Positions 4,510-56,228 of a DNA stretch of 58,741 nt are shown one piece after another. The position numbers and the translations under genes are program-made. Numbering within the stretch: position 1 is the first letter of the stretch; each line of letters begins with the position of its first letter. Below the pieces are notes generated by a model. It saw nothing but the letters and a program-made list of their open reading frames with translations, ran no database searches and was not told where the DNA came from. Origin of the DNA: a virus (taxonomy: Duplodnaviria; Caudoviricetes); the IMG/VR virus record IMGVR_UViG_3300037761_000042, positions 1 through 58,741 of that record. One strand, given 5' to 3'.

Positions 4510-5337
4510 TTATTCATTTTTATCCAATTCATAAATTATTTTTGCATTATCACACATTTTGTGTAGTCTCCAAGTCTTGCCATCAAAACTAGGTATCAAT
4601 CCAAGATTCCACAAATCAATACATGATTGGAATGGGTTTTTGTCTTCCATGCAGTTAATATATTTCCAATTTGTTATTGCAAAAAATGTTGAAATGTAAG
4701 CCCTAACCGAATCCCTAACCGAAGCCCTAACCGAAGCCCTAACCGAATCCCAAACCGAAGCCCCAACCGAATCCCCAACCGAAGCCCAAACCGAAGCCCT
4801 AACCGAAGCCCAAACCGAATCCCTAACCGAATCCCAAACCGAAGCCCCAACCGAATCCCCAACCGAAGCCCTAACCGAATCCCAAACCGAATCCCTAACC
4901 GAATCCCTAACCGAATCCCTAACCGAATCCCTAACCGAAGCCCACATTATTAACAATGCAATTTCTGATTCATTAACATTGTCACTATGTTGAATGTTTT
5001 TGGGATTAATGATATCTTTTATTTGTAATTCTGGAACAATAGTTTTAAAATCAAGATTAATACATTTTTCTTTAACAATTGCTGAATCATTTTTATTGTT
5101 TATTTGATCTATTGTGAATTCTTTTGTTAAAGGATTGTATTCATACTTGTTGTACATATCCTCTTCTTTGCTAAAAATATTATTATGTGCCATTATGCTG
5201 CTATGGCTGTCTGTTTCAGTTATACGATTTCCTTTGCTATCTTTTAAAGTGCCCTCAATAATCTGTTTGCGTTGTTCGGTGTTAAAGTACATTATTTCTC
5301 CTGCTCCATCCGAAACTACGCTAAAAAAATCACACAT
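4510..5337 (-). CDS. Hypothetical protein with 20 SV[R/W/G][D/A] tetrapeptide repeats
   Basis: 275-aa ORF with SD GAGGGGG; repeats flanked by non-repetitive sequence. Confidence 0.8.
   Translation of the reverse strand: MCDFFSVVSDGAGEIMYFNTEQRKQIIEGTLKDSKGNRITETDSHSSIMAHNNIFSKEEDMYNKYEYNPLTKEFTIDQINNKNDSAIVKEKCINLDFKTIVPELQIKDIINPKNIQHSDNVNESEIALLIMWASVRDSVRDSVRDSVRDSVWDSVRASVGDSVGASVWDSVRDSVWASVRASVWASVGDSVGASVWDSVRASVRASVRDSVRAYISTFFAITNWKYINCMEDKNPFQSCIDLWNLGLIPSFDGKTWRLHKMCDNAKIIYELDKNE
4699..4938 (-). repeat. Coding minisatellite, 20 x 12 bp, TCGGTT[A/T/G]GGG[A/C]T
   Basis: Parsed unit by unit; only positions 7 and 11 vary. Confidence 0.97.
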
Positions 5338-18241: not shown

Positions 18242-18730
18242 TTAAATATATTTCCAATTTCTATTATTTAAAATATGACATACCATACCAATTGAAATGT
18301 TAAAAATTTTAGATATTTCAGTTCGTGTTAAATAAGGATAATCATATTTAATTGATTTGACTTCATTTTCAGTTAATTTATGGCTACCATTATTTGCACC
18401 TCTCATTTTTAATCCATGTTTTTTGCCTGTTGATTGTCTACCTTTTTTAATCATATCTGCCATATTATCTTTTTGAGTGCCAATAAAAAGATGATTTGGA
18501 TTTATACATCTCGGATTATCACATTTATGGCAAACACACATATCGTCAGATATTTTGCCTTTATATTTTTGATACATATATCTATGCATCATTATTCTTT
18601 TTCCATTTTCAAAATATCTAGCATATCTATTTTTCTTTGTAATATGACTTGTGCATATCCAACACCCGTTTTCATTAATTTCCCATGTAATTTCTTTTCG
18701 ATTGTTTTTATTATTATAAGGTGCTCCCAT
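18242..18730 (-). CDS. HNH homing endonuclease
   Basis: GCWI, MHR, VCHKCDNPRCINPNHLFIGTQKDNMADM..KGR; C-terminal HTH. Confidence 0.92.
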   Translation of the reverse strand: MGAPYNNKNNRKEITWEINENGCWICTSHITKKNRYARYFENGKRIMMHRYMYQKYKGKISDDMCVCHKCDNPRCINPNHLFIGTQKDNMADMIKKGRQSTGKKHGLKMRGANNGSHKLTENEVKSIKYDYPYLTRTEISKIFNISIGMVCHILNNRNWKYI

Positions 18731-33035: not shown

Positions 33036-33731
33036 TCATATGCTGAGTGCTAATTGTTGAATTTTAGTTTTTGTATCGTAATTTAAATATTTGAGTATTT
33101 TTCTTTCTTTTTTCTTATCATAAAAACTTTTCATTGGATACCATTCAAAAAAATCACTATTACATTTGCTTGAATTACAAATTGAACAACAAGGTATTAT
33201 ATTATTTTTTGTATATTCTCCGCCTTTTGATAATGGAATAAAATGATCTTGCGTAAGAGGTTGCTCTTTTCCACAATAAGCGCATTTATAATCAAAATGT
33301 TCTTTACAAAATCTCCATTCATTAAAAGAAAAATTAGTTTCAATTTGTTTTTCTAAAGTTCTTCTTTTATGTTTACTCTTTTTTGCATAATATCTTGATC
33401 TTTCTGGATTACTATAATAATAATCTTTAGATTTCTTATTTAATAAATCCTTATTTTCAATATAATATTTTTTGCCCCACTTAGATCTCTTACTAGAATT
33501 AATTTTATTATATTCTTTTTTTATGGCACAGATTTTATCCCTATTTTTTATATGGTATTCTTTCTTTTGTTCGAGTATCTTATTATTATTTTCTTTGTAA
33601 AAATTTTTTACTATTTTTATTCTACATGCTTTACATTCTGGTCTAAAACCATCTTTGCATTCTTTGTGAACATAAAAAAATTCTTCTGTTGCTGGAAATT
33701 CGTTCCCACATTTCTTGCATTTTTTCAACAT
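33036..33731 (-). CDS. HNH endonuclease with N-terminal Zn-binding domain
   Basis: KKCKKC...ECKAC; CAYCG, DHFIPLSKGG, NIIPCCSICNSSK. Confidence 0.9.
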   Translation of the reverse strand: MLKKCKKCGNEFPATEEFFYVHKECKDGFRPECKACRIKIVKNFYKENNNKILEQKKEYHIKNRDKICAIKKEYNKINSSKRSKWGKKYYIENKDLLNKKSKDYYYSNPERSRYYAKKSKHKRRTLEKQIETNFSFNEWRFCKEHFDYKCAYCGKEQPLTQDHFIPLSKGGEYTKNNIIPCCSICNSSKCNSDFFEWYPMKSFYDKKKERKILKYLNYDTKTKIQQLALSI

Positions 33732-33770
33732 AATAAAAACACCTCCTGTAGTGTGTCCTGATTTTATAAA

Positions 33771-33825
33771 ATGAGGCCGGTTCAGGAAAACCGTTTTAAC
33801 TAGGTAGCTACTCCCAGTGCCCCAT
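33771..33825 (-). ncRNA. Three-way-junction leader RNA, copy A
   Basis: P1 AUGGGGC/GCCUCAU, P2 ACUGGG/CCUAGU, P3 CGGUU/AACCG; loop UUCCUG complementary to SD CAGGAG. Confidence 0.6.
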
Positions 33826-33845
33826 ATATATTATATTATATCATA

Positions 33846-35420
33846 TTATTTGATATAATACGAAGGTTTTTTAAGTGTTTTATGTAGCAATTGCAATGAA
33901 TCCGGAGCATCATCGTGCTTGCATTTAGGGCGTATCGAAAAATCTTTGATTTGCTGATTAAACGAAACATTGAGTTTATTAAACAAAATCTTGCCTCCTG
34001 TAATGTCAGGTTCAAGTTTCATAATTCGTATCTCTTTATTATCAGTGGCTTTAACATGCGTAACCATTCTATAACAGTCCGATTCGCATAGTTTTTTAAT
34101 CAATTCATCTTTTAATAGGTCTTTAAATAAATTACTTTCAAGAATGATTTCTTCTATTTCTGGATATTCTTTTACAAATTTAATGATTTCGTCCATAATC
34201 TGATACGGATTATGCAAAGCTAGTTTCCCATCTCTTATAAAATAACCACCATTTAATTCTCCACCAATTACATAAGCACTTGAATCTCCTTTTCCTTCTG
34301 ACGGATCAACAGCAAGTTTTAATTTTTTAATTACCTCAGGCCATTCATCCCAATATGTTAATTTTTTAAATGGTTTATCTCTTGCACTTTGCGGATTGTT
34401 TTGGTCTTCCTTTTGAAATGCATCTTCTCCAAATGCCTCTCTATCTAACATAACACCATAATATGCTCCAGCATATTTCATTTTGTTTTCTGGTGTTTTA
34501 CCTTCCCATAAAACCTTTGTTCCTTTAATCATATCAACTTTATTATTTAAATAAAAAGCATATGCATCATCCATACGGTTTTCATTATTTAAGTTTTGAA
34601 ATATTTTGCGCCATTCTTCCCACAACTTTTCGCCTTTATCATCAGGAAATGAAATAACTCTTTTATAAAACAATGTTTTCCAAGAAGGCATTTGAATCAC
34701 TCGTGCCAAAAGTGCATCAGTAGAAAGTAATGTCCCTATATAAAACATGTCAGTGTCATAATCACCTAAACGTCCTATTTCTTCATTAAAACAAGTTTCT
34801 AATTTTATTCTGAGTGAATCTGAATCTAAGGTGCTTTTATCCTCCAAATCATCAAGAATCACCAAATCTGGTCTACGATCTTTATTTATACCTCTTATAC
34901 CTGATTTCCACCCAGTACAACCTACCCAACAATCATTTTTTAAACAAATATTATCAGCATTCCATACACGCCCTTTTTGCGGGCCAAAATCTTGTATTAC
35001 TTCTACGCTTTCTAAAGCTTTTTTAACTTTGTCTAAAAAATTAGCGGCAGTGTCACCATTTGCACTTATGAAAAAAGTAAATTTTTTCTTTCCATATAAT
35101 GCAGCCCAAGTAGGTATTGCTACAGAAGATAATGTACTTTTCCCATGTCCCCTTGGTGCTATTACTGCCATTTTCTCAGCCGATTCAGATTGAATGGATT
35201 TGGTTAATACATTAAGTATTTCTTTTGCATAGTCTCCAAATTCCTTATCAAAAAGTTCTGCAAGATATGTTCTGCAAAAATACTCCGGATAAATTTCGCC
35301 CAGCATTCGTCTTAATCCACCAGACCCCGTTAACGGAAAGCTAGTTAAAACCAATTCCGCATCATCTCCGAAATGTTTAAATGCATATTCAATTAATAAA
35401 TCTTTTTGATAACTATCCAT
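33846..35420 (-). CDS. terL: Terminase large subunit
   Basis: APRGHGKST (Walker A), LVILDDLE (Walker B), AVDPS nuclease Asp, HDDAPD. Confidence 0.95.
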   Translation of the reverse strand: MDSYQKDLLIEYAFKHFGDDAELVLTSFPLTGSGGLRRMLGEIYPEYFCRTYLAELFDKEFGDYAKEILNVLTKSIQSESAEKMAVIAPRGHGKSTLSSVAIPTWAALYGKKKFTFFISANGDTAANFLDKVKKALESVEVIQDFGPQKGRVWNADNICLKNDCWVGCTGWKSGIRGINKDRRPDLVILDDLEDKSTLDSDSLRIKLETCFNEEIGRLGDYDTDMFYIGTLLSTDALLARVIQMPSWKTLFYKRVISFPDDKGEKLWEEWRKIFQNLNNENRMDDAYAFYLNNKVDMIKGTKVLWEGKTPENKMKYAGAYYGVMLDREAFGEDAFQKEDQNNPQSARDKPFKKLTYWDEWPEVIKKLKLAVDPSEGKGDSSAYVIGGELNGGYFIRDGKLALHNPYQIMDEIIKFVKEYPEIEEIILESNLFKDLLKDELIKKLCESDCYRMVTHVKATDNKEIRIMKLEPDITGGKILFNKLNVSFNQQIKDFSIRPKCKHDDAPDSLQLLHKTLKKPSYYIK

Positions 35421-35443
35421 TAAATCACAGCCTTTCAAGGCAA

Positions 35444-35481
35444 TAAAAAAAGCCGCCTACCCAATTAAGGATAAACGGCTC
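35444..35481 (-). terminator. Intrinsic terminator immediately upstream of terL
   Basis: AGCCGUUUAUCC/GGGUAGGCGGCU stem followed by a U-tract. Confidence 0.75.
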
Positions 35482-35493
35482 ACTAAGGGGGCA

Positions 35494-35694
35494 CTAAAAG
35501 TTTATTTTAATTTCTATTGATATTCCCGATTTTGCTATAGCAGTTTTACCAGCAGAATATATTATTACTGGCTTGGAGCTATTGCCACATCTAGGGCATA
35601 TAACACGATACACAGAATCTGTTCCACTACCCTCTATGTAATGAGCAAGTACTCTTCCACAATCAGGGCAAATAACTTTTTTAAATGTCTGCAT
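35494..35694 (-). CDS. Com-like zinc-ribbon protein
   Basis: KVICPDCGRVLA...RVICPRCG; start MQTFKK. Confidence 0.65.
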   Translation of the reverse strand: MQTFKKVICPDCGRVLAHYIEGSGTDSVYRVICPRCGNSSKPVIIYSAGKTAIAKSGISIEIKINF

Positions 35695-37516
35695 AAAGCT
35701 TTCCTTTCGCCTTAATAAGACTTTGTAAACAAAGTTCTGATATGTCACCAATGTACGAATACCATTCTATAAATTTCACTAATACTTGCATGTAATCAGT
35801 ACAAAACATGGTTGTTTCCATTTCAAATTTCAAATGTACACTTTGAACCACGTGCATAAGAAACTTTTGAAAGGTATCACTGTATTTAGTCTGTATTTCC
35901 ATTCTTGGTGCTATCACTTCTTTGCGTATTTCAGTATATCTTTCAGTATTTGGCTTGTTTTCAAGTTCTTCTTTATACTTTTTGCATAAATCAGCACCTT
36001 TAATACAGTTGTTTATAATTTCTCTGACTTCAACTTCTGTATGTTCAATTATTTCTCTTAATCTTTCTGTATCACTTTTAGCCGTTGTAAAATGTTTAAG
36101 ATTTTCCTTAATTATTTCAACTGGATTGAATGTTTCGGCTATATATCTTTCAATAGTTTCGTCAAATTTGGCAATTTGTGTACCTTGTATATATGCTCCA
36201 CCCTCAGTGCAATTAATTACATGCCCCTTGTGTTGAGCAATATCCATTTCATAAGCTTTCAAGAAATTATACCAACCAGAATTAGTCTTTATTTCATCGG
36301 CATAATTACCTCTTACATTAAAAATTCCTTCACCTTCTGAGGTAAAAGGAACTGGAGTTGCATGAGTTTCATCATTTGGCCCGTATGCTAAGTCTTGCCC
36401 AACTAAGACGATCGGGTCGCAACCTAAAGCCTCTGCAATTTTAAAAGCCATATTAGAGCTACTTAGTTTTATATCAAGTATTCCCCTATCAATTTCTAAC
36501 CATTTAAAATGGTCAAAATTACGGTATGCAATGATTTGTGGCCCATTGTATGATTTATATACATGGTTAAATAAAACAGGACAGGCGGTCATATAAACGT
36601 CTTTTACGGCATCGGGTTCAAAACCATCAAAGAATTGTTGCACTTCGTGTTCCCTTTCGAGGCTTGTAACTATATGCGGCTTAATACCGTTATTCATTAA
36701 AAATTTAAAGCTTGCATCAACGCTTATTATCAACGCTTTATCTTCAAGACCTTTAAGTAAGTGCATATTTTTTTTTAAACTCGGACCCGTTGCAACAATT
36801 ACCGCTGGTTTGCCTTTAAACTTATCATATAGCAAGTTAATTCCTGGATTATTAACAATCTCACTTACATTATCAAGCATATTTTCCAAACCTATCAGCG
36901 AATCTTCTGGACAATTGCCATAATTCTGTATAGTGTGATAAAGGGCTTCAAACAATATTTGCATTGCTCTTATATAATAATCTTTACCTATTTTCATGGG
37001 CGGATATAAAAATACTGGTTGTGTAGCTCCACACATTAACGTCTCTTGAATGTTAATCTGAAAATGTGTTCGTAATACTGTATATAATTGATCTATTGGA
37101 ATTCCGACAAATAAATGTACTCGTGGATTGCTGATTATTTGAGTTAAATCAGTAACATTCATTGCTGCCATAAACATTTCTGGATCTTTTTCAAATATTA
37201 TCAATGCTTGCGATTGAAATTCTTTTGATTTAACAGACATAAAATACATTACTTCATATCCTAAACCAATACCGCAAAATACCGGAACTTTTACATTATC
37301 TAATTCCAAGCCTTTGAATTGCTCTTCGCAATATTGTTGAATATTTCCAATATAGTATGTTTGCCCTCCAACCAAAACATTAGGAATGCAATTTTCATGC
37401 TGTACAAGTTGATATTTTTGTCCAACTTCAACCATAGTTAATATTAATGATAAGTCTGGGTATCTTTGTTGTAATGCGTTCCAGTTATTTTTAAATATCT
37501 CTGGATTAATATTCAT
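35681..37516 (-). CDS. maf: Maf-family (MAF_flag10/DUF115) protein O-nonulosonyltransferase
   Basis: PAVIVATGPSL.KN, IISVDAS, GIKPH.V.S.E, A..LGCDPIVLVGQDLAY, INCTEGGA.I; N-terminal FKNN.NAL and G.GLGY...IIFEKD. Confidence 0.88.
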   Translation of the reverse strand: MNINPEIFKNNWNALQQRYPDLSLILTMVEVGQKYQLVQHENCIPNVLVGGQTYYIGNIQQYCEEQFKGLELDNVKVPVFCGIGLGYEVMYFMSVKSKEFQSQALIIFEKDPEMFMAAMNVTDLTQIISNPRVHLFVGIPIDQLYTVLRTHFQINIQETLMCGATQPVFLYPPMKIGKDYYIRAMQILFEALYHTIQNYGNCPEDSLIGLENMLDNVSEIVNNPGINLLYDKFKGKPAVIVATGPSLKKNMHLLKGLEDKALIISVDASFKFLMNNGIKPHIVTSLEREHEVQQFFDGFEPDAVKDVYMTACPVLFNHVYKSYNGPQIIAYRNFDHFKWLEIDRGILDIKLSSSNMAFKIAEALGCDPIVLVGQDLAYGPNDETHATPVPFTSEGEGIFNVRGNYADEIKTNSGWYNFLKAYEMDIAQHKGHVINCTEGGAYIQGTQIAKFDETIERYIAETFNPVEIIKENLKHFTTAKSDTERLREIIEHTEVEVREIINNCIKGADLCKKYKEELENKPNTERYTEIRKEVIAPRMEIQTKYSDTFQKFLMHVVQSVHLKFEMETTMFCTDYMQVLVKFIEWYSYIGDISELCLQSLIKAKGKLYADI

Positions 37517-38370
37517 TATATCGCTCCAATCGTCTGTTTAATCTCATTTACAGTAAGAAACCATTTATTTGTACCGCTGCTATATCCTGGTTCCATCTCT
37601 TCGTGAATTTTCTCGCCTTGACGTATGCCAATCACTTTATAAGGCATTCCAAAAGATGCTGCAAGGTCGACAATACGAATGCTTGGTAGCTTTGGTATAA
37701 ACAGTTCTCCGCCTTGCATTTTTTCAAGGCTATCAGTAACAAATCTCACCGTATCTGACATTAAAAACCAAAATCTTGTCATTTCTTCGTGGGTAACTGG
37801 CAATTCGTCAACGCCTTGCTCAATTAATTTTTTCCAAACTGGTACGATCGAACCATTCGAACCCACAACATTACCATATCGGCATATTGAAAACCTAATA
37901 TCATCATTCGCCGCATATTTGTTTGCGCCAAGCCAGAGTTTTTCAGCTAAAGCTTTGCTTGTACCATATGTATTTACCGGATTAACTGCTTTGTCAGTTG
38001 ATATAAACAGGCATTTATTTACTTTTCTCTCTATGCAAGCATCAATTACATTTTGAGTTCCTTGTACATTAGTTAGCATTGCTTCGCTTGCGTTATACTC
38101 GCATGATTCAAGGTCTTTTATAGCCGCACAATGCAATACTATATCTACTCCATTAAGTGCTCTCAAAAGCCTGTCTTTGTCTCTTATATCACCGATAAAC
38201 CAACGGTAATTTGACGGATTTCCTAACTCATTTCTTAGATTCATTTGTTTTTGCCAACATCTTGAAAAACATATTACTTTTTGAGGATGTTGATCTAATA
38301 AAAATTTAGAATAAGCCGTTCCGAATGATCCTGTCATCCCAGTTATCAAAATTGTTTTATTTTTAAACAT
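37516..38370 (-). CDS. pseB: UDP-GlcNAc 4,6-dehydratase (inverting), PseB-like
   Basis: ILITG.TGSFG, FIGDIRD, H.AA.K, ISTDKAVNPVN.YG.SK, RYGNVVGS.GS, MTRFW, GIR.GEK.HE. Confidence 0.88.
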   Translation of the reverse strand: MFKNKTILITGMTGSFGTAYSKFLLDQHPQKVICFSRCWQKQMNLRNELGNPSNYRWFIGDIRDKDRLLRALNGVDIVLHCAAIKDLESCEYNASEAMLTNVQGTQNVIDACIERKVNKCLFISTDKAVNPVNTYGTSKALAEKLWLGANKYAANDDIRFSICRYGNVVGSNGSIVPVWKKLIEQGVDELPVTHEEMTRFWFLMSDTVRFVTDSLEKMQGGELFIPKLPSIRIVDLAASFGMPYKVIGIRQGEKIHEEMEPGYSSGTNKWFLTVNEIKQTIGAI

Positions 38371-38875
38371 TTATTGTCGCTCCTTTGTTAATACTTGCCC
38401 AATATGGATGGTGTTTTAATTTTTCTAAGATATATACTTCTCTAGCTTCTGCTTTATTCGGATATACACCTAAATATTTAGGTATTTTGTTAATTACAAT
38501 TTGAGCAACATATTTCCCTGATTTTTTATGAAAATAATATCCCTTTGCTTTTGAATTTTGTTTATTTTCGCTATCAGTTACAATATTTAGATTTTCATCA
38601 CTATTATCAAGCGTATCCATGTTAATATGATCTATTTTTATTTTTGGATCAATTACACTTTTTAAATATCTATGCAGTTTTATGGTAGTCTTTTTATCAT
38701 TTATTCTTATATGTCCATAAACATAATAATTTTTAACTCTTTTATCATAAACAGCATACCATCTGCCCTTGAAATCATTTGCCATGTTTAAATTGCATAA
38801 AGATATTTTTGTTTTAATATTATTTTGCAATAAAATATAAACATAATTTCCATTAATGATTATATTATTTTCCAT
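38363..38875 (-). CDS. HNH-AP2 homing endonuclease
   Basis: LHRY, IDHIN.DTLDN...NL, KGYYFHKKSGKYVAQI...YLG. Confidence 0.9.
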   Translation of the reverse strand: MENNIIINGNYVYILLQNNIKTKISLCNLNMANDFKGRWYAVYDKRVKNYYVYGHIRINDKKTTIKLHRYLKSVIDPKIKIDHINMDTLDNSDENLNIVTDSENKQNSKAKGYYFHKKSGKYVAQIVINKIPKYLGVYPNKAEAREVYILEKLKHHPYWASINKGATINV

Positions 38876-38908
38876 TTTCCGCACCTCCTAAAGCGCCCTA
38901 TTTATGCA

Positions 38909-38963
38909 AGCAAAAAGAGAGGCTAGGAAACCTCTCTTGTCGAGTCGCGAACTCTATTTTGCT
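38909..38963 (-). ncRNA. Three-way-junction leader RNA, copy B
   Basis: P1 AGCAAAA/UUUUGCU, P2 GAGU/ACUC, P3 AAGAGAGG/CCUCUCUU; loop UUCCUA complementary to SD UAGGAG. Confidence 0.6.
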
Positions 38964-39012
38964 ATAGTGTTTTAATTCCTGTTATAAGTATTGTTTTATC
39001 GCTCCAATCCAT
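38962..39012 (-). pseudogene. Orphaned PseB-like N-terminus (MDWSDKTILITGIKTL)
   Basis: Perfect AGGAGG SD; KTILITG is identical to the start of pseB. Confidence 0.65.
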
Positions 39013-39013
39013 A

Positions 39014-39238
39014 TTATTCCTCCTGTGTTCCGAATTCGGCTAATTTTTTAGGAATTATTTTTAACTTTAGTTCAGGGAAGCATATTTCCGTTTTTGTTTC
39101 GGCTTTTATTTCAATTTCTTGTAAACCAGTTAAACGTTTTCCATTAAGATATAACTCTCCCATTCCGTGAGTTTCTTTTTGAATATAAACAAGTATTGGA
39201 GTCTTATCTAATTTTAACTCAAATGGTTTTTCGGTCAT
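39014..39238 (-). CDS. Hypothetical protein
   Basis: 74 aa, coupled to the NeuB-like gene. Confidence 0.55.
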   Translation of the reverse strand: MTEKPFELKLDKTPILVYIQKETHGMGELYLNGKRLTGLQEIEIKAETKTEICFPELKLKIIPKKLAEFGTQEE

Positions 39239-39239
39239 T

Positions 39240-39887
39240 TCAAAGCACCTCCGACAATTGTTTTGGTGTTTTCATAAATGGGCCAGCATCTAATCCAGTA
39301 GAATCTGAAAGACCGTAATGCCATTCAATCACCGCTGGTTCAAATTTCCTAAATAAAGAAAAACATGTTGTATGGTCGCTTATGCCACCGTGAAGCTGAC
39401 TCGGTGAAAAAATAGTTATGTAATCATCATATTTTGCAGGATAGCTTGAAATGCAACGTAAACATATATCGTGCTGTAACGGAAACGCCCAACTATCATT
39501 GAAATACGGTATTGCCGGATTATATTCTCCGATACTAACACATATTTTATATTTTCTTGGTATTTCTCCAATCAAATAATCAAGTTTTCGGTTATTGGCT
39601 ATTTTTATAAAGGGCACATCATACCCCAATAAAAAATCCAGTGAATTTTTATCAAAAACACTAGCTGTAACTTTATATCCCAAACTTGTTCCGTATTCAT
39701 ATGCATAATTAAAGCAATCATGTGTTAGTGGGATATTATCTCCTGCTTTTTCAAAAAGTTGCCATTTGCAGATTATTTCATGCTTGCCTGTGTCAACTGC
39801 TTTTAGTTCGTCATACATTCTTTTTGTATAATCCCAATTATTTTTATTTGTGTTGCCGCTGCCTAAGTCCAGTATAATTTTAGCCAT
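39240..39887 (-). CDS. NeuB/PseI-family nonulosonic acid synthase lacking the C-terminal SAF domain
   Basis: KWQLF, ASVFD, FIKIA, C.S.YP, G.SDHT, IE.H..L....G.D motifs. Confidence 0.8.
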   Translation of the reverse strand: MAKIILDLGSGNTNKNNWDYTKRMYDELKAVDTGKHEIICKWQLFEKAGDNIPLTHDCFNYAYEYGTSLGYKVTASVFDKNSLDFLLGYDVPFIKIANNRKLDYLIGEIPRKYKICVSIGEYNPAIPYFNDSWAFPLQHDICLRCISSYPAKYDDYITIFSPSQLHGGISDHTTCFSLFRKFEPAVIEWHYGLSDSTGLDAGPFMKTPKQLSEVL

Positions 39888-39904
39888 GTTATCACTCCTA
39901 AAGT

Positions 39905-40099
39905 TTATTCTTCAATAATTGCATAAATAAATATGCCCGCAAGTATAAGCAATGTTATTGCTAATGGAATCCAAATTGGGCTTAATATCCACATCCATGA
40001 CCAATCAATATAATGAGTTAGCTTCAGCACAATAAATACAATCGTTAACAAACCGCAAAAACCAATTCCGCCACTAGAGCTATTATTTTTTGTACTCAT
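39905..40099 (-). CDS. Small two-TM phage membrane protein
   Basis: GGIGF.GLLTIVFIVLKL...IDWSW.W.LSPIW. Confidence 0.7.
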   Translation of the reverse strand: MSTKNNSSSGGIGFCGLLTIVFIVLKLTHYIDWSWMWILSPIWIPLAITLLILAGIFIYAIIEE

Positions 40100-40291
40100 A
40101 TTATTCGCCCCTCTTTTATAAATAGTTTGAATTCTGGTAATGCTTCAATTATTTCTATATTGTTCTTTTTACATTTTTTTGCATTCCCATTTATATTTTA
40201 TATCTTTCTCTAGATGCCCAAAACTTATAAATAAGTCAGTATAAATAGTATCACAATGTTTACAAATTAAACTTTCTATTATTCGACTCAT
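40096..40291 (-). pseudogene. Zn-ribbon protein frameshifted in an A7 tract
   Basis: CKHC...WECKK then stop; removing one A restores CKKC and ATGA coupling to the next gene. Confidence 0.55.
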
Positions 40292-40848
40292 TTGTTTATC
40301 GCTCCTTTTCCTATAACGTCTCTTATTGGTGTATCCCAACCTTTTTCTAAAAGATGTATGTATTTTTCTTTATCTCTAAAGTTGTGATATGTAGTTTGCT
40401 TGTACCGCTTTGCTTTGCCATTCCGTATATACGGCCATGCTTTCTCAAATAAATCTTCTATACAGCCAGAAAGTTTTGCGTAAAATGTTCGCAATGTGTC
40501 ATTAATATCATATTTCATATACCGTTGACAAATTATATCTCCTGTATCCAACCCCTCGTCAATAAAATGAACAGTAACGCCTTTTGGCGTATTATCCAAA
40601 AAACTCCACAAGTTAGGATCGGCTCCACGGTTCCACGGCAAATAACTTATGTGCAAATTAATAGCCCTATCCTTAAATTTATCAAGAACGGGCTTTCCTA
40701 TAATGTGCCGATATCCATAACTGATTATAAAATCTTTATCTTTTAATATTTCATCTGTTAATGGCTCTATTGTTTGTGTTACCTCGTCACCATGCGACAT
40801 GAGATATTGTATTAAGTGTATGTGTGGGCTTAGAAATAGTATTTTCAT
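40288..40848 (-). CDS. Formyltransferase (Formyl_trans_N), sugar N-formyltransferase-like
   Basis: IISYGYRHII, INLHISYLPWNRGADPN, GVTVHFIDEGLDTGDII.Q. Confidence 0.9.
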   Translation of the reverse strand: MKILFLSPHIHLIQYLMSHGDEVTQTIEPLTDEILKDKDFIISYGYRHIIGKPVLDKFKDRAINLHISYLPWNRGADPNLWSFLDNTPKGVTVHFIDEGLDTGDIICQRYMKYDINDTLRTFYAKLSGCIEDLFEKAWPYIRNGKAKRYKQTTYHNFRDKEKYIHLLEKGWDTPIRDVIGKGAINK

Positions 40849-40858
40849 TGTATCGCTC

Positions 40859-41194
40859 CTAGTCTTTTATTAAACTTAAACTAAATAATCTATCGATATC
40901 ACTTGGCATATGTCCATCCCATACAGGTGCAGTATTAAATTCCTTAACTTCAAACATGTTCCAATAATCTTTATGATAGTGATATGAATAATCTCCTTCA
41001 GGAGTAAACACGCCAACTATAAAATAATCATCAAACATTGTACCGTCTGAATGTTTCCATGATTTCCAAGCATGGGTTTTGTTTTGATTGCATATAATCG
41101 CAAATAAACACATTCTATGATAATAAAGTTCATCAAATGTATGGTATCCGTCACTTATTTGACCTTTAGCTTCTACATCAAATTCAAATTTCAT
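40859..41194 (-). CDS. Conserved phage protein with WDGH motif
   Basis: SDGYHTFDELY.HR..LF, WKS..H.DG, SYHY, AP.WDGH. Confidence 0.7.
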   Translation of the reverse strand: MKFEFDVEAKGQISDGYHTFDELYYHRMCLFAIICNQNKTHAWKSWKHSDGTMFDDYFIVGVFTPEGDYSYHYHKDYWNMFEVKEFNTAPVWDGHMPSDIDRLFSLSLIKD

Positions 41195-41744
41195 TGTATC
41201 GCTCCTTGTTAAAATTTATATATTCACTGTCATAATATAGGCCGTTCCAATATTTGCGATTAGGTAATATAGCCAACCTTGAATTGTACTTGTTGGCTTG
41301 TTGCATCCAAAATTTGTTATATGGGCTACATTCGTAAACCTCAGTATAAATATTCTCCAAATTCATATTCATAAAACCTTCATGCAGCAATAAATCTAAC
41401 GCTATTTCGCCATACTTGTTTATTAGAAACTTAGTATAAAATATTAAGCTTATTTCTGCATTTCGATTTTCTAAAGATATATTTTCAAGGCCACACATTC
41501 CAATTAATCCAGCATTTTGTTCGGGTATGAGGTTTCCCATAACGTCACGATTTAATACTTGGTTATCATTTTCGACTATTCCCCAATATCTCGAATTGGC
41601 TTGTCTATTGCAAACTACATCAGAATAAAAATTCATTTGCTGCTGCTGTGTTAATGGAAATGATGTTCTTAGCATTGGAAGTTGTTCATTTCGCCATTGC
41701 CTGACTTGTTCACAATCTGATAAGGATAATGCTTTTAGTTTCAT
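41184..41744 (-). CDS. GNAT N-acetyltransferase, PseH/RimL-like
   Basis: D.EQVRQWRN, IG.CGL.NI...NRNAEISL, GF..MNLE.I..EVY; start MKLKAL. Confidence 0.8.
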   Translation of the reverse strand: MKLKALSLSDCEQVRQWRNEQLPMLRTSFPLTQQQQMNFYSDVVCNRQANSRYWGIVENDNQVLNRDVMGNLIPEQNAGLIGMCGLENISLENRNAEISLIFYTKFLINKYGEIALDLLLHEGFMNMNLENIYTEVYECSPYNKFWMQQANKYNSRLAILPNRKYWNGLYYDSEYINFNKERYNEI

Positions 41745-41755
41745 ATTATCGCTCC

Positions 41756-41950
41756 TTAAATCCAATTCATTTTATAAATAGTGTTAGGATCAATTTCTTT
41801 TCCTTTTTTTGTTAAAACCATGTTGCATCCTTCTGCAAAATAATCGTCTGCAAATATTTCAAATAATGCTTCTACGTTTTTCAAGGATAAATTTTTATCT
41901 TTTGTCTGAGTTAATAATTGTATTAATTTATTTGTTTCAATATATTTCAT
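41756..41950 (-). CDS. Hypothetical protein
   Basis: 64 aa; SD AAGGAGCGA; preceded by leader copy C. Confidence 0.55.
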   Translation of the reverse strand: MKYIETNKLIQLLTQTKDKNLSLKNVEALFEIFADDYFAEGCNMVLTKKGKEIDPNTIYKMNWI

Positions 41951-41996
41951 ATTACTCGCTCCTTTATATTATTATTTTTTCGCCCCAATATTTAAA

Positions 41997-42053
41997 TAGC
42001 ACAGGGAAACCGAGGAGCGAATTCGGTTTGTCGGTGATAACCGTCCCTGGCTA
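41997..42053 (-). ncRNA. Three-way-junction leader RNA, copy C
   Basis: P1 UAGC-CAGGGA/UCCCUG-GCUA, P2 CGGU/ACCG, P3 AAACCGA/UCGGUUU; loop UCGCUCC complementary to SD GGAGCGA. Confidence 0.6.
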
Positions 42054-42057
42054 AAAT

Positions 42058-42657
42058 TTACTTTATTTGATTTTCTTTAATCTGTTTTTCTAAAATTAAT
42101 ATGCCGACAGTTCCCCATTGCTGACCGCCTAATACCCGGACGTGATAATTTTTAAACATGGTTTTTAATACAGCATTTATTCTTACGCCTTTGCAGTATA
42201 TCCAAGGATTCACGAAGTACTGTAGACCTTTACTGTTGTTACCTTTATAAATTATATCCGCTTTAATTAATCCGCTTAAAACTTGGCTTAATTTTCCTCT
42301 ACTCATTCCAGATATATCAACTAAATCCTCAAAATCAAGAACTCTTCCATTATCAAATTTTAAGCAGCAATCTTCATAACCTACATAAGTAGCGATGGAA
42401 AATAAAAAAGCCCTATCATAAACTGAAAGGCTTTTCATTAACTCTCTTATTTCTGGTATATGTCCTTTAAAGAAATGTTCAAGATTCCACTCTTGTTTAT
42501 CACCGCTTTTAATAGCTGCGTATTCTCTCATTTCCTTATCCTTTTTACTCTTTAGAGAATTTCTACTAATAATTAAATCACTTTTTTTAATTTTCCTATT
42601 GACATTACCATTTAAATCTGTTAGCAGTCCTACTATTTGCTCATCATCATCCATCAA
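42058..42657 (-). CDS. RepL/MarR-like winged-helix DNA-binding protein
   Basis: EDLVDISGMSRGKLSQVLSGLIKADII HTH and YFVNPWI..KG. Confidence 0.65.
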   Translation of the reverse strand: MMDDDEQIVGLLTDLNGNVNRKIKKSDLIISRNSLKSKKDKEMREYAAIKSGDKQEWNLEHFFKGHIPEIRELMKSLSVYDRAFLFSIATYVGYEDCCLKFDNGRVLDFEDLVDISGMSRGKLSQVLSGLIKADIIYKGNNSKGLQYFVNPWIYCKGVRINAVLKTMFKNYHVRVLGGQQWGTVGILILEKQIKENQIK

Positions 42658-42669
42658 TTTACCTCATTT

Positions 42670-42708
42670 CAGTTCACCACATGAACTAAACAGTTCACCA
42701 CATGAACT
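42670..42708. repeat. Two 18-bp direct repeats, each an interrupted palindrome
   Basis: CAGTTCACCACATGAACT at 42670-42687 and 42691-42708 (AGTTCA-N5-TGAACT). Confidence 0.9.
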
Positions 42709-42879
42709 TGACCAATTGGCTTATAACCCTTTATATAAGCATGTTTTAAGCCTGTTTTTTCGTTTTCTATCCCTCTTTATCTTACATCTTATTTTCTACG
42801 GTAATTCAGTCTCTTTTTAAGCCCTTTTTATTTTTTAAAAAATTTTTAAAGTTGGGTTTAACCAGTCTCCCATTTTAAA

Positions 42880-42939
42880 CATAAGAAAAAGAGAGGTGGA
42901 GTTCCTCTCTTATTGGGCAGCTGACCCTATTTTCTTATG
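42880..42939 (-). ncRNA. Three-way-junction leader RNA, copy D
   Basis: P1 CAUAAGAAAA/UUUUCUUAUG, P2 GGG/CCC, P3 AAGAGAGG/CCUCUCUU; loop CUCC with GGAG just downstream. Confidence 0.55.
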
Positions 42940-43106
42940 AAATTTAACCTCTTTTTGTTTTGAAAAATTTATTTTTGCGCTTAATCGCAAGCTTTCTCGA
43001 AACGATTAGGTAATTAGACCTCCCCACCCTTGATACAAGCCAACTTCCTTAATTACACGAAACTATAATTTTGTTTACTATACGTTACATACAATGGCTG
43101 TATCCC

Positions 43107-43628
43107 TTATGTATCAGTGCTTTCAGCCTTATTCTGTTTCTTCTTTAATTCGTTTATCTTACCTTGTATATCGTCATTAGTTAGTTGGTCACTAGATGTA
43201 GTGGTATTAACTTCTATCTTATCTATCCAACCAAATTGTTTAAGCCCAAATATACCACGAATTGGATTAACTTTGCCTTGTAATGAAGCTTCATCAAGAT
43301 AATTTTCGCATATATCTTTAGCTCTTTTTATACAGTCAGAAAACTCTGGTTTTATTGCATAATCATCTAATGTTTCTCTTGATGTATTTAAACAAACAGC
43401 AAGTCCAGTAACAGTATAAGGCTTTACTTGACGCATCAAAGGATTACCTTCTCTATCAAAGTCTTGTATCCATATATATTCACCAGTATTCTTGCCTTTA
43501 TCATCTTTTATTGATTCTTGATGCCAAACTTCTTCCCAACATGATTTGAAATAACCATCTATTTTCTGTTGTAATTCTTCTACAGAACTAAACTTTAACG
43601 GTCTACCACCCTTTATAGGTACTGTCAT
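43107..43628 (-). CDS. terS: Terminase small subunit
   Basis: GGRPLKF.SVEELQ.KID.YF, PYTVTGLA..L.TSRETL..Y, IF.LK.FGW.DK. Confidence 0.9.
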   Translation of the reverse strand: MTVPIKGGRPLKFSSVEELQQKIDGYFKSCWEEVWHQESIKDDKGKNTGEYIWIQDFDREGNPLMRQVKPYTVTGLAVCLNTSRETLDDYAIKPEFSDCIKRAKDICENYLDEASLQGKVNPIRGIFGLKQFGWIDKIEVNTTTSSDQLTNDDIQGKINELKKKQNKAESTDT

Positions 43629-54870: not shown

Positions 54871-55669
54871 TTTGCATCTCTCCCATCTTTTTTAATCTGT
54901 CTAAAAATGGATTGCTGCTTTGCTGCGGTGGATTTTGATGTGTAGTGGTTAGTTTGTCCTTCTCGTTCTTTTCCCACGTCCTAACACAAGCCTTCCAATC
55001 CTTTAGTTTTGTCTTGCCTCTAAACCAGTTACTGGATGCGTAATGATTTACAAACTTTTCAGCATCAACAGTGTTATTTCTTTCTTTGCAATATTCCTGG
55101 ACTTGTTCAATTGTTGGTGGGATGAATTTGTTATTTTTAATAGGTTTTTCGGGTTCATCCACGATACGTGGTACGAAACGTGGTACGATACTGTCATTGT
55201 CATTGTCATTGTGTATGTCATTATCATTTTTATATAGAGACAACATTTCTCTAATAGTATTAATAGTTTCCCTATCATCAGTGGAACCACATATTTTACA
55301 ATAAACAATTCCTAACAGTGAAGTATCTTTTACCAGACTAATATCTTTTGTGATGCAGTCTATTACTGGTTTTCCACCTTTTACAATTGAATATTTAAGG
55401 TAGTTGAATATAGCTATTTCTTGGCTTTCACTTGAATACGCAATAACCTTATATTTACTTTGAAATCTTTCTAACAAGACATTTACTGTGTCTAAGCTAT
55501 AGCCTGTTTCAAAAGCTATTATTTTTCTAGGAAGTTTGTATACTCCCAGTTGTCTTGTTTGTGGATTAGTTAAAAGATACAACCAAAAGTATTTATCTTC
55601 CGGCGAATAGTTATCAATTACCTTTTCGTCTTTCCAAAAATCGGTATCAACTATTCTTTTAATCCCCAT
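54863..55669 (-). CDS. Phage replication initiator
   Basis: RIVDT.FW.D.KV, DKYF.LYLLTNP, F.PPT.EQV.EYC.ER, DWKA.VRTWE. Confidence 0.85.
   Translation of the reverse strand: MGIKRIVDTDFWKDEKVIDNYSPEDKYFWLYLLTNPQTRQLGVYKLPRKIIAFETGYSLDTVNVLLERFQSKYKVIAYSSESQEIAIFNYLKYSIVKGGKPVIDCITKDISLVKDTSLLGIVYCKICGSTDDRETINTIREMLSLYKNDNDIHNDNDNDSIVPRFVPRIVDEPEKPIKNNKFIPPTIEQVQEYCKERNNTVDAEKFVNHYASSNWFRGKTKLKDWKACVRTWEKNEKDKLTTTHQNPPQQSSNPFLDRLKKMGEMQSE
55161..55209. repeat. Iteron-like repeats inside the initiator gene (candidate origin)
   Basis: ACGATACGTGGT-ACGAAACGTGGT-ACGATAC, then TGTCAT x3. Confidence 0.6.
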
Positions 55670-56228
55670 TTTCATCACGCTGCTTTCTCCTGTTAAAACA
55701 GATTCCGCCGATTTTATTAAAAACCAATGTTGCGCTATCTTTTTTCTTGGGATCGTAATATGTTTGAATAGAAATCATTGCGCTGTCATAGACTTCTGAA
55801 AATCCAAACTCTTTTATTTGTTTTTTACAATCATTTCTGCCATACTCAGAATATTTATGACCTGTATACTCATTTAAAAGATTTTCGATTTCATTCACTT
55901 GTGTATCTAGCAGGCTGTTTAGTTCTTTTTTCCATTTCAACATCATATCTAACTGAGATCGTTTTTCATTTAAATCTTTAAGCTGCTGCTGTTGTTTTTT
56001 TATTACTGCATCATCAGATATTTTTCTCTTTCCTTTACCCCTGTTGCAATCAAAACACGATGTAAGTAGATTCATTATGTCGTTGTCTCCACCTCTTGCA
56101 ACTGGATTAATATGGTCTACTTCTAAAACAACATCGGGTGCCATTCTCCCGCAATATTGGCAAGTAAAACTATCTCTTTTAAATACTTCAAACCTTATTT
56201 TTTTACTGATTGTTTTACGCTTTGTCAA
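55659..56228 (-). CDS. HNH endonuclease-domain protein
   Basis: RFEVFKRDSFTCQYCG, LEVDHINPVARGG.N...NL.TSCFDCNRGK. Confidence 0.9.
   Translation of the reverse strand: MTKRKTISKKIRFEVFKRDSFTCQYCGRMAPDVVLEVDHINPVARGGDNDIMNLLTSCFDCNRGKGKRKISDDAVIKKQQQQLKDLNEKRSQLDMMLKWKKELNSLLDTQVNEIENLLNEYTGHKYSEYGRNDCKKQIKEFGFSEVYDSAMISIQTYYDPKKKDSATLVFNKIGGICFNRRKQRDENGD

Follow-up and report, generated by a model that had tools for sequence, protein, structure and literature searches.

The region described here lies on the minus strand of a 58,741-nucleotide stretch of viral DNA (IMG/VR record IMGVR_UViG_3300037761_000042, hereafter the window), which contains four short elements, copies A to D (Table 1). 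Copies A and B each precede an HNH-type endonuclease gene, as the original prediction of four leader RNAs had proposed and as Pfam and PHROG matches confirm. Copy C precedes a short ORF, and copy D is followed by no minus-strand ORF of at least 40 aa, in agreement with the earlier remark that it has no substantial gene at its Shine-Dalgarno (SD) sequence.

Table 1. Features of the four leader copies and of the genes next to them; positions are those of the window.
Feature	Position	Strand	Basis or remark
Copy A, extended -10 promoter-like site	33830..33843	-	read from sequence; TGnTATAAT 33843-33835, overlapping second TATAAT 33835-33830
Copy A, three-way junction	33771..33825	-	RNAfold, helix scan, CM R1, covariation
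Copy A, P1	33825-33819 with 33777-33771	-	
Copy A, P2	33818-33799	-	loop 33812-33805, self-complementary 6-mer on loop 3' side
Copy A, junction strand	33798-33794	-	
Copy A, P3	33793-33778	-	loop 33788-33783
Copy A, Box1	33756..33761	-	first P3-loop-complementary site, 6 bp, no G-U
Copy A, P4 hairpin	33739..33754	-	33754-33751 with 33742-33739
Copy A, SD box	33748-33742	-	second P3-loop-complementary site, in P4 loop
Copy A, start codon	33731-33729	-	
HNH endonuclease gene behind leader A	33036..33731	-	231 aa; Pfam HNH 2.6e-09; PHROG
Terminator-like hairpin closing cassette A	33051-33031	-	terminator scan
Vestigial 16-codon ORF	38962..39012	-	repeats N-terminus of PseB-like protein; stop codon overlaps copy B P1
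Copy B, three-way junction	38909..38963	-	RNAfold, helix scan, relative L091
Copy B, P1	38963-38957 with 38915-38909	-	A/U-rich
Copy B, P2	38954-38942	-	self-complementary 6-mer 38950-38945
Copy B, P3	38937-38916	-	loop 38930-38923, then U run
Copy B, downstream part	38881..38900	-	Box1 38900-38896; P4 38896-38881; SD box 38891-38884
Copy B, start codon	38875-38873	-	
HNH_3-type endonuclease gene behind leader B	38363..38875	-	phrog_99 4.2e-23; PF13392 25.2 bits, over cut-off
Copy C, three-way junction	41997..42053	-	RNAfold, helix scan
Copy C, P1	42053-42044 with 42007-41997	-	one bulge
Copy C, P2	42043-42032	-	4-nt loop, not self-complementary
Copy C, P3	42028-42008	-	loop 42022-42014
Copy C, downstream part	41948..41986	-	Box1, SD box and start codon
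Copy C, Box1	41986-41979	-	8 bp with loop, one G-U
Copy C, SD box	41962-41954	-	9 bp with loop, one G-U
ORF behind copy C	41950-41756	-	64 aa, start codon 41950-41948, no Pfam family
Copy D, three-way junction	42880..42939	-	RNAfold, helix scan
Copy D, P1	42939-42930 with 42889-42880	-	
Copy D, P2	42927-42915	-	self-complementary 6-mer 42923-42918
Copy D, P3	42910-42890	-	loop 42903-42897, then U run
Copy D, weak Box1-like site	42872-42867	-	no P4, no ORF

The three-way junction of a closing stem P1 and hairpins P2 and P3 that had been predicted at four sites is present at all of them, with coordinates and sequences in agreement and with RNAfold giving it as the MFE or centroid structure in 4/4 cases. 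A helix scan of the window also recovers the four elements (33825-33771, 38963-38909, 42049-42002 and 42939-42880). The fold z-scores are weak (A -2.24, B -1.30, C -1.03 and D -1.03), and the loose descriptor of that helix scan matches 95 Y-shapes on the plus strand and 119 on the minus strand of the window. Upon addition of two downstream loop-complementary sites to this descriptor, 30 of 258 real minus-strand loci pass as compared with 14-23 of 204-240 loci in six local shuffles, so in these scans of the window real sequence does not stand out from shuffled. Given how frequent loose Y-shapes are, and how often shuffled loci pass, the fold within a single genome is not beyond chance; it is comparison with relatives that establishes the four elements as real. 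The predicted complementarity between the P3 loop and the downstream SD is present as quoted, and two sites as good as those observed arise in 1, 15 and 0 of 2000 dinucleotide shuffles of the downstream stretch of copies A, B and C, respectively, but the 4-bp match of copy D is at chance level (1321 of 2000). Treating the four as one module holds up for copy A, which is canonical and carries every feature of the leader family (CM R1 score of 108.8 bits), but the copies are not equivalent, with B diverged, C atypical and D an orphan. The junction as first drawn also proved to be only part of the architecture, which further includes a second and in many leaders better partner of the P3 loop (Box1), a hairpin presenting the SD (P4) and, in the copy A subfamily, a promoter placing P1 at the transcript 5' end.

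The suggestion that the elements might match an existing Rfam motif did not hold, as 0 matches were obtained over the whole window at gathering threshold (Rfam 15) and only three unrelated weak ones (E about 6) over 33600-43200 at E<=10. ARAGORN, in its standard and -mt modes, detected neither a tRNA nor an armless tRNA in L063 or any of the four window copies (0 genes). A group I intron was rejected since there is no Rfam match and cassette A lies between genes and has a promoter of its own. Hammerhead and other small ribozymes were rejected because, by eye, the junction strands lack conservation and the length that the ribozyme consensus calls for. Across members these strands are short, A-rich and variable.

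We assembled 28 distinct A-type leaders from the 27 loci of one metagenome pattern scan, the window and a Bacillota MAG; the pattern prescribes the junction, the UUCC of the loop and a portion of P2, columns that are thus uninformative, and the leaders are mutually related so that counts among them are not independent events. They have in common an extended -10 promoter that stops a few bases short of P1, the junction, P4 with the SD and a start codon, and the promoter, TGnTAnA[AC]T, lies at a fixed distance upstream of P1 in 25/28. In a CM-fitted alignment of 32 sequences (A4), 95.4% of the paired cells are paired and both-side changes occur in 19/21 nested pairs. The covariation score of the nested helices is 0.479, relative to 0.183 upon shuffling, with 0/500 shuffles reaching the real value, and to 0.067-0.139 with slid partners. 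MAFFT alignments of shortened leaders (A2) and of junction-only diverged members (A5) were discarded as inconsistent with the structure. Neither megablast with the 10-kb region nor blastn with one leader gave a match among 50,697 phage records, literature searches found no description of such a leader, and endonuclease leaders are not discussed in the main text of a report that presents >10,000 structured RNA candidates of viral contigs (PMC10690425). The leaders apparently constitute a widespread, previously undescribed RNA family tied to phage homing-endonuclease genes.

The P3 loop matches two downstream sites, with Box1 located just after P1 and a second box over the SD. Counted on a plain MAFFT alignment that is not structure-fitted (A6, 28 sequences), the loop-Box1 pairing has 97.1% of its cells paired and contains two covarying pairs (UA 21/CG 4/UG 3 and GC 21/AU 5/other 2). 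The loop-SD pairing is 97.5% paired, with pairs of UA 22/CG 4/UG 1/other 1 and GC 13/AU 2/other 2/gaps 11, while slid controls for both pairings are 40-67% paired with zero both-side changes. The predicted covariation of loop and SD is thus supported across the family in two columns of A6; in the remainder a pyrimidine-rich loop stands opposite a purine-rich SD, a match for which little selection is needed, and the outer pair is missing from the SD flank in 11/28 leaders (a gap column). Diverged members (L035, L068b, L044b, L088, L091, L100 and window C) keep the two-box rule with other loop sequences. Mean predicted duplex energies are similar for Box1 (-7.41 kcal/mol) and the SD region (-6.84 kcal/mol), and are -5.82 and -5.45 kcal/mol, respectively, when loops are placed on members of another loop class. 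P4 comprises 4-5 bp and displays the SD in its loop, with only the last SD G in the stem. Inspection by eye of the stretch from P3 to the SD showed no promoter-like site.

The central four bases of the P2 loop, which the search pattern leaves unconstrained, are self-complementary in 28/28 A-type leaders (CATG 20, AGCT 5 and CGCG 3). Window B and D, L076, L044b and L091 carry different self-complementary 6-mers, and four members (window C, L035, L009 and L068b) have short loops that are not self-complementary. The self-complementary apex had been noted for three of the window copies and is found in A, B and D, whose palindromes all differ within the one genome.

The comparisons show the family, its four helices and, through covariation, both loop pairings, as well as the association with nuclease genes and the mobility of the cassette. 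The reading that we favor, with a probability of roughly 0.55, is that a conserved structured 5' leader RNA and the free-standing homing-endonuclease genes of Bacillota phages make up a portable expression cassette, and that the P3 loop of the leader toggles between a decoy and the SD. In the canonical form, copy A, a host-type extended -10 promoter would initiate transcription at the first base of P1 or beside it, and the RNA would fold into the three-way junction followed by an A-rich spacer, Box1 and the short P4 with the SD in its loop. Since the P3 loop is unable to pair with Box1 and the SD at once, we take the two pairings as alternatives, of which pairing with the SD would hide the ribosome-binding site and pairing with the Box1 decoy would leave it free. 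The leader could thereby set or switch endonuclease output from a strong promoter, and the P2-loop 6-mer most likely allows two leaders to kiss, which could shift the balance with transcript concentration. The leaders thus probably tune translation of their genes; this translational effect, its direction and the dimerization are what we infer from sequence.

An unlikely alternative, although the likeliest of the rivals, is that the junction and the loop-Box1 pseudoknot form a compact 5'-terminal structure that stabilizes or insulates the mRNA, for example against 5'-end-dependent decay, with the SD resemblance of Box1 and the loop-SD match as by-products. The promoter spacing, which sets P1 at the extreme 5' end of the transcript, is what this would predict. 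Box1 is also the more stable loop partner in 14/27 leaders (with a tie in 1), which means that the SD match could follow from Box1 resembling an SD, and in L044b neither box is SD-like and both are distant from the likely start. Against this, the SD flank changes along with the loop (CG 4 and AU 2 in the two columns, and also in L100), and every A-type member holds the SD in the P4 loop.

The genes behind the leader encode HNH/HNH_5, HNH_3 (+AP2), GIY-YIG (+NUMOD3), CapR/DUF723/DUF4379 and DUF559/Vsr-like proteins. Two loci with TerL proteins 81-82% identical (L023 and L024) have the leader and an HNH gene between TerL and portal, while a relative with TerL 78% identical (L025) has neither. 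With at least five unrelated nuclease families behind it, and with leader and gene both absent from a close relative, the leader is the portable cis-acting module that had been proposed. Near-identical leader segments occur upstream of unrelated nuclease genes, as would be expected if the promoter-leader block were kept mainly as a DNA recombination handle for swapping nuclease genes, with the RNA fold secondary; PeSL cassettes offer a published precedent for this in the portions available to us (PMC2839356, PMC4122927). We consider this improbable, given that a block of DNA homology should conserve sequence rather than show compensatory changes across the four helices and both loop pairings.

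Proteins of the CsrA type recognize GGA in loops, and the A- and B-type members have GGA in both boxes, about 13 nt apart, the second within the loop of the hairpin that covers the SD. Such a protein, or another host or phage RNA-binding protein, might bind at Box1 and the SD box, with the junction as platform or competitor. This we regard as highly improbable, as the boxes covary with the P3 loop, GGA is lost from both L044b boxes and from Box1 of L068b and of window C, and no such protein is encoded beside the cassettes examined.

Copy B is a diverged member located inside an operon; it carries all family features with a weak CM R1 score (21.2 bits, E 0.045-0.1), and L091, a diverged relative, has a full leader. 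The vestigial ORF upstream of it reads as the mark of a leader B and HNH_3 cassette inserted into the 5' end of the gene for the PseB-like protein. Copy C we class as atypical, as it has the junction and both boxes with no clear P4, and its gene is no recognizable nuclease. Copy D is best described as an orphan leader that consists of the junction alone; the other family features are present in its relative L076, which has a full leader and an HNH_3 gene, although the L076 loop complements are also at chance level (841/2000 shuffles). CM R1 at E<=10 does not match copies C and D, and their membership rests on architecture together with L076 and L009. L009 is the one locus, among 21 loci of ORF199 relatives, in which the CM found a leader; the closest ORF199 relative, L002, has no counterpart of copy C or D.

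A pattern scan for the B/D type gave 15 loci, among which L076 is by eye the sole relative and the other 14 have a generic AT-rich terminator look; an exact 19-mer search with the D-type P3 again returned L076 only. In a terminator scan B and D show a U run directly after a G+C-rich hairpin, A does so weakly and C does not, and the U run after its P3 gives copy B a terminator-like look too. By eye, most relatives have no U run after P3 or P1. An explanation of the elements, or at any rate of B and D, as ordinary intrinsic terminators with A/U tracts that pair by chance around a small extra hairpin in an AT-rich genome would fit these scans, the weak z-scores and the Y-shapes and two-site loci that are frequent even in shuffled strands, but it is the least probable alternative because L091 and L076 keep P1, P2 (with another self-complementary loop), P3, P4 and the nuclease gene, a U run is missing from L091 and the A-type members, and chance folds cannot explain the observed covariation. 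Acting as terminators would not, moreover, prevent B and D from being leaders as well, and in their lineage P3 together with the U run may additionally end or attenuate transcription.

Few selfish genes are as common in phages as those for free-standing homing endonucleases and, to our knowledge, the control of their expression is known mainly from a few T-even examples. One leader common to at least five unrelated nuclease families would make the regulatory part itself a mobile, exchangeable module, and it would serve annotators as a marker for nuclease cassettes and for remnants such as copy D. The architecture combines one loop whose two partners, Box1 and the SD, are nearly isoenergetic with a second loop that stays palindromic through sequence change. 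This would be a compact natural system for ligand-free RNA switches and possibly for mRNA dimerization in bacteria, of which we know few documented cases. A more speculative and doubtful extension is that the leader acts as a protein-free dosage sensor for the selfish gene, in which dimerizing P2 loops hold endonuclease per cell low. Specifically, leader transcripts would accumulate as the phage genome replicates and pair through their self-complementary P2 loops, which would either move the P3 loop from decoy Box1 to the SD or create a nuclease-sensitive helix, so that endonuclease synthesis per cell would stay low at any template number; the differing palindromes of A, B and D would keep these cassettes largely separate. 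As natural compensatory variants exist for every helix, the leader architecture is directly testable.

Several known systems share parts of this design. Copies B and D resemble Rho-independent terminators in having a G+C-rich P3 hairpin and then a U run, but this run is absent in most members, P2 and P1 covary, and Box1, P4, the SD and a gene lie downstream. The preQ1-II and SAM-II riboswitches are SD-sequestering pseudoknots, and the leader likewise has a loop-to-3'-tail pseudoknot that reaches the ribosome-binding site; in contrast to them it has no Rfam match, its variable junction strands show no conserved ligand pocket, and two alternative partners would replace ligand-dependent folding. 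Dimerization loops of the DIS type contain a 6-nt Watson-Crick self-complementary sequence in a 7-8-nt hairpin loop after one or two unpaired bases; the P2 loop of the leader has this arrangement too, and its 6-mer remains a palindrome while the sequence varies between lineages. In HIV-1 the DIS is a kissing-loop dimerization hairpin with a palindromic loop, in the account given by the accessible part of PMC4588261, whereas the leader is part of a bacterial-virus mRNA and not of a retroviral genome, its dimerization is predicted, and four members have the short non-self-complementary loops. The PeSL elements of T4-type phages, described in the available portions of their reports as promoter-terminator composites thought to serve as recombination sites (PMC2839356, PMC4122927), are also a promoter with a structured segment that moves with accessory genes between phage genomes; here the structure is a covarying multi-helix RNA downstream of the promoter, tied to nuclease genes in Bacillota phages. 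There is a functional parallel with the T-even genes I-TevI, I-TevII, I-TevIII, segB and mobE, for which the accessible sections of PMC2988022 describe hairpins that sequester the ribosome-binding site and limit homing-endonuclease translation, and which thus also place the SD of a phage homing endonuclease in a cis-acting RNA structure. The L032 leader follows the T4 layout. As far as those sections describe it, a single long hairpin holds the T-even SD in its stem and a late promoter inside the structure yields transcripts that escape it, whereas the leader family has the SD in the P4 loop and its extended -10 promoter upstream of P1. The leader has no sequence relation to the T-even hairpins and, unlike theirs, its SD would pair with a loop, that of a three-way junction, for which a decoy offers a second partner.

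The fold originally predicted for four minus-strand leaders in the window (copies A to D), a junction of helices P1, P2 and P3, is the RNAfold minimum free energy or centroid structure of each copy. The copy sequences match those given in the original prediction, and an independent helix scan recovered all four at their coordinates with stems well over the minimum length. The RNAfold z-scores are weak (-2.24 for A, -1.30 for B and -1.03 for both C and D). On its own the window proves nothing, because a loose helix descriptor also yields 95 and 119 Y-shapes on its two strands, and because adding two downstream loop-complementary sites (30 of 258 real loci versus 14-23 of 204-240 in shuffles) fails to distinguish real from shuffled window sequence.

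Relatives of copy A were sought with a pattern that combined a segment of P2 with the junction and the four bases that open the loop. It matched 27 loci in metagenomes and two contigs from genomes, a Bacillota MAG being the source of one. The distinct leaders resembling copy A (A-type) number 28 with the window included, and all share one plan: P1, P2 and P3 lead through an A-rich stretch to a short box of purines (Box1), after which the loop of P4, a hairpin of 4-5 bp, displays the SD, and U-rich sequence separates P4 from the start codon. The promoter element TGnTAnA[AC]T, found in 25 of the 28, ends 15-20 bases 5' of the fixed P2 motif, a distance at which transcription would be expected to begin within the first bases of P1. 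At the position of copy A, two viral contigs with 81-82% identical large terminases have a homologous leader together with an HNH gene, with compensatory changes in P2 and P3 and a P2 loop that is altered yet still self-complementary. In a third contig (terminase 78% identical) the terminase directly adjoins the portal, without leader or HNH gene, which indicates that the promoter-leader-gene-terminator unit between terminase and portal is an insertion, in keeping with the portable module first proposed. Matches to R1, a covariance model of the leader, occur at E<=0.01 in 3 of 112 genomes from the class of the Bacillota MAG, and blastn found no leader among 50,697 deposited phage genomes.

For covariation of the nested helices, 32 matches were realigned with R1. 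In this alignment, which is fitted to the model, 95.4% of cells are paired, 19 of 21 nested pairs vary on both sides and the covariation score is 0.479 versus 0.183 for shuffles (none of 500 as high) and 0.067-0.139 with partners slid, with the caveat that the inner pairs of P2, the junction and UUCC were set in advance by the search pattern. P4 covaries in three of four pairs of A6, a MAFFT alignment of the 28 leaders that is blind to structure, and the Bacillota MAG provides one more variant.

The P3 loop of each A-type member has two complementary sites. Measured from the end of the start codon, Box1 lies about 33-35 nt upstream and the second site, which covers the SD, about 20 nt upstream. 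Counted on A6, loop-Box1 is paired in 97.1% of cells, with two covarying columns (UA 21, CG 4, UG 3; GC 21, AU 5, other 2), and loop-SD in 97.5%, with columns that also co-change (UA 22, CG 4, UG 1, other 1; GC 13, AU 2, other 2, gaps 11); slid controls are 40-67% paired with zero double changes. The two duplexes have similar predicted energies (-7.41 kcal/mol with Box1 and -6.84 with the SD region), and loops swapped onto another loop class are weaker than native (-5.82 and -5.45 kcal/mol, respectively). The pairing and energies thus support the loop-SD interaction of the original prediction, which overlooked the first and often better partner, Box1.

The four central bases of the P2 loop, left free by the search pattern, are self-complementary in 28 of 28 A-type leaders (CATG 20, AGCT 5, CGCG 3), where a random tetramer would be so with a chance of 1/16. 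Together with the U and A on either side they make up a 6-mer, located towards the 3' end of a loop of 7-8 nt. To switch between these forms, bases must change in pairs, and intermediate forms were not observed. Four family members have short P2 loops without self-complementarity. Since these bases are unable to pair with each other within one hairpin, loop-loop pairing between two RNAs would be the simplest reading.

Copy A is canonical (R1 108.8 bits). Copy B has all leader parts (21.2 bits, E 0.045-0.1) and lies inside an operon, where no convincing promoter was seen for it; with its HNH_3 gene it forms a cassette inserted in the 5' end of a PseB-like gene. Copy C, missed by R1, has the junction and the window's two best loop complements (8 bp and 9 bp; none of 2000 shuffles did as well), no clear P4 and a P2 loop that is not self-complementary. 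Copy D consists of a junction only. Its SD match of 4 bp is no better than chance (1321 of 2000 shuffles) and, as first noticed, no gene follows, so that it appears to be what is left of a lost cassette. The claim that two copies precede homing endonucleases holds for A (HNH) and B (HNH_3-type); the 64-aa gene behind C has no family.

The window is a complete 58,741-bp IMG/VR virus record with direct terminal repeats. The position of its sugar-modification cassette between the terminase genes is unusual, and the cassette suggests nonulosonic-acid-type glycosylation by the phage. The leader is absent at two further HNH-family genes.

Features of the window, with the terminase region in minus-strand order
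Feature	Position	Strand	Remark
Small terminase subunit gene	43628-43107	minus	
450-nt gap	between small terminase and 199-aa genes	minus	contains copy D
Copy D	42880-42939	minus	
Two 17-nt direct repeats	42670-42707	minus	inverted repeat inside each; just 5' of 199-aa gene; look like an operator; kept before its 78%-identical homologue (L002, about 1755-1795)
199-aa gene	between copy D gap and copy C	minus	function not assigned
Copy C	41997-42053	minus	3' of 199-aa gene; then 64-aa gene
Sugar-modification cassette	35681-41765	minus	GNAT, WDGH, formyltransferase and NeuB-like genes (between 64-aa gene and copy B), PseB-like, Maf/MptE-like
NeuB-like ORF (215 aa), then separate 74-aa ORF	39014-39887	minus	perhaps one NeuB, split or frameshifted
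Vestigial 16-codon ORF with own SD	38962-39012	minus	duplicates PseB-like N-terminus; stop codon overlaps copy B P1
Copy B	38909-38963	minus	then HNH_3-type endonuclease, PseB-like and Maf/MptE-like genes
Intact PseB-like gene restart	38370 (region 38330-38370)	minus	overlaps HNH_3 ORF end
Large terminase subunit gene	35438-33846	minus	
Copy A	33771-33825	minus	3' of large terminase gene; then HNH endonuclease gene, portal
Two further HNH-family genes	55659-56228, about 18242-18730 (minus)		tightly behind or overlapping upstream gene
Tandem array, 11-nt G/T-rich unit	4749-4814		met in helix scan

An R1 search of fetched DNA and whole records gave weaker members, which besides copy B are L100 (34.2 bits), L088 (34.1), L035 (31.9), L091 (27.1), second copies in L068 (26) and L044 (25), L009 (18.3) and L076 (14.4). 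Their loop sequences differ, yet matching boxes are present in each, for example complements of 8 bp (Box1) and 6 bp (SD) in L100 and two boxes of 7-8 bp each in the second copy of L044. Junction, loop and SD box are alike in L091 and copy B. The P1 of L091 is G+C-rich, its P2 loop is self-complementary with a different sequence, it lacks a U run, and its gene is of a zinc-finger HNH-like kind. L076 is truly related to copy D: P3 is the same, P1 carries a compensatory change, and the P2 loop is again self-complementary with another sequence. Box1, a P4 that holds the SD, and an HNH_3 gene come next. In L009 a leader and GIY-YIG gene lie directly 3' of a homologue of the 199-aa gene, the slot of copy C. 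Decayed cassettes were also seen, one with a leader lacking the 3' half of P2 before a two-codon ORF (L099, 1501-1604) and one with an intact leader before a zinc-finger ORF stopped after 12 codons (L039, about 1240-1300).

The leader is not bound to one protein family. A Pfam scan of 29 proteins behind leaders gave HNH/HNH_5 in 8 (and window A), HNH_3 in 3 (one with AP2; also window B), GIY-YIG in 3 (one with NUMOD3), CapR/DUF723/DUF4379/DUF2726 in 2, DUF559/Vsr-like in 1 and no family in 8; a helix-hairpin-helix protein follows one diverged copy. This variety argues against autoregulation by the encoded enzyme. Other leader types also precede HNH genes, one with two hairpins of mutually complementary loops 3' of a TGnTATAAT promoter (L033/L034, about 1270-1440) and one with an anti-SD 5' of the promoter, like the T4 I-TevI layout (L032, about 1430-1500).

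The comparative data show a conserved multi-helix leader at the predicted 5' end of endonuclease transcripts, one loop of which could pair with either of two boxes, one being the SD, and we call the element a putative cis-regulatory mRNA leader for homing endonucleases. Loop-Box1 and loop-SD would be alternatives that set ribosome access, loop-SD being the closed and loop-Box1 the open state, and the equilibrium may be shifted by P2 dimerisation or by a factor acting in trans. For the lineage of B and D, P3 with a U run may also act as a transcription terminator. A plain terminator scan is satisfied by copies B and D and weakly by A. That loop, Box1 and SD flank covary together is less simply explained by plain terminators, and likewise by a 5' stabiliser, a platform for protein binding or a handle for recombination at the DNA level.

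Rfam 15 holds no match to the leader, though an existing motif had been thought possible, and full-text literature searches found no description of one; they did turn up the PeSL (promoter/stem-loop) cassettes reported from T4-type phages. By term search, endonuclease leaders are not treated in the main text of PMC10690425, which catalogues more than 10,000 candidate RNAs from viruses; the supplements of that catalogue might list the motif. Given the lack of an Rfam or literature match and the different layout of the T-even hairpins, such a leader appears not to have been described yet. Those hairpins, as described in PMC2988022, sequester the SD of T-even homing endonucleases and contain an internal late promoter, a layout that differs from the leader found here.
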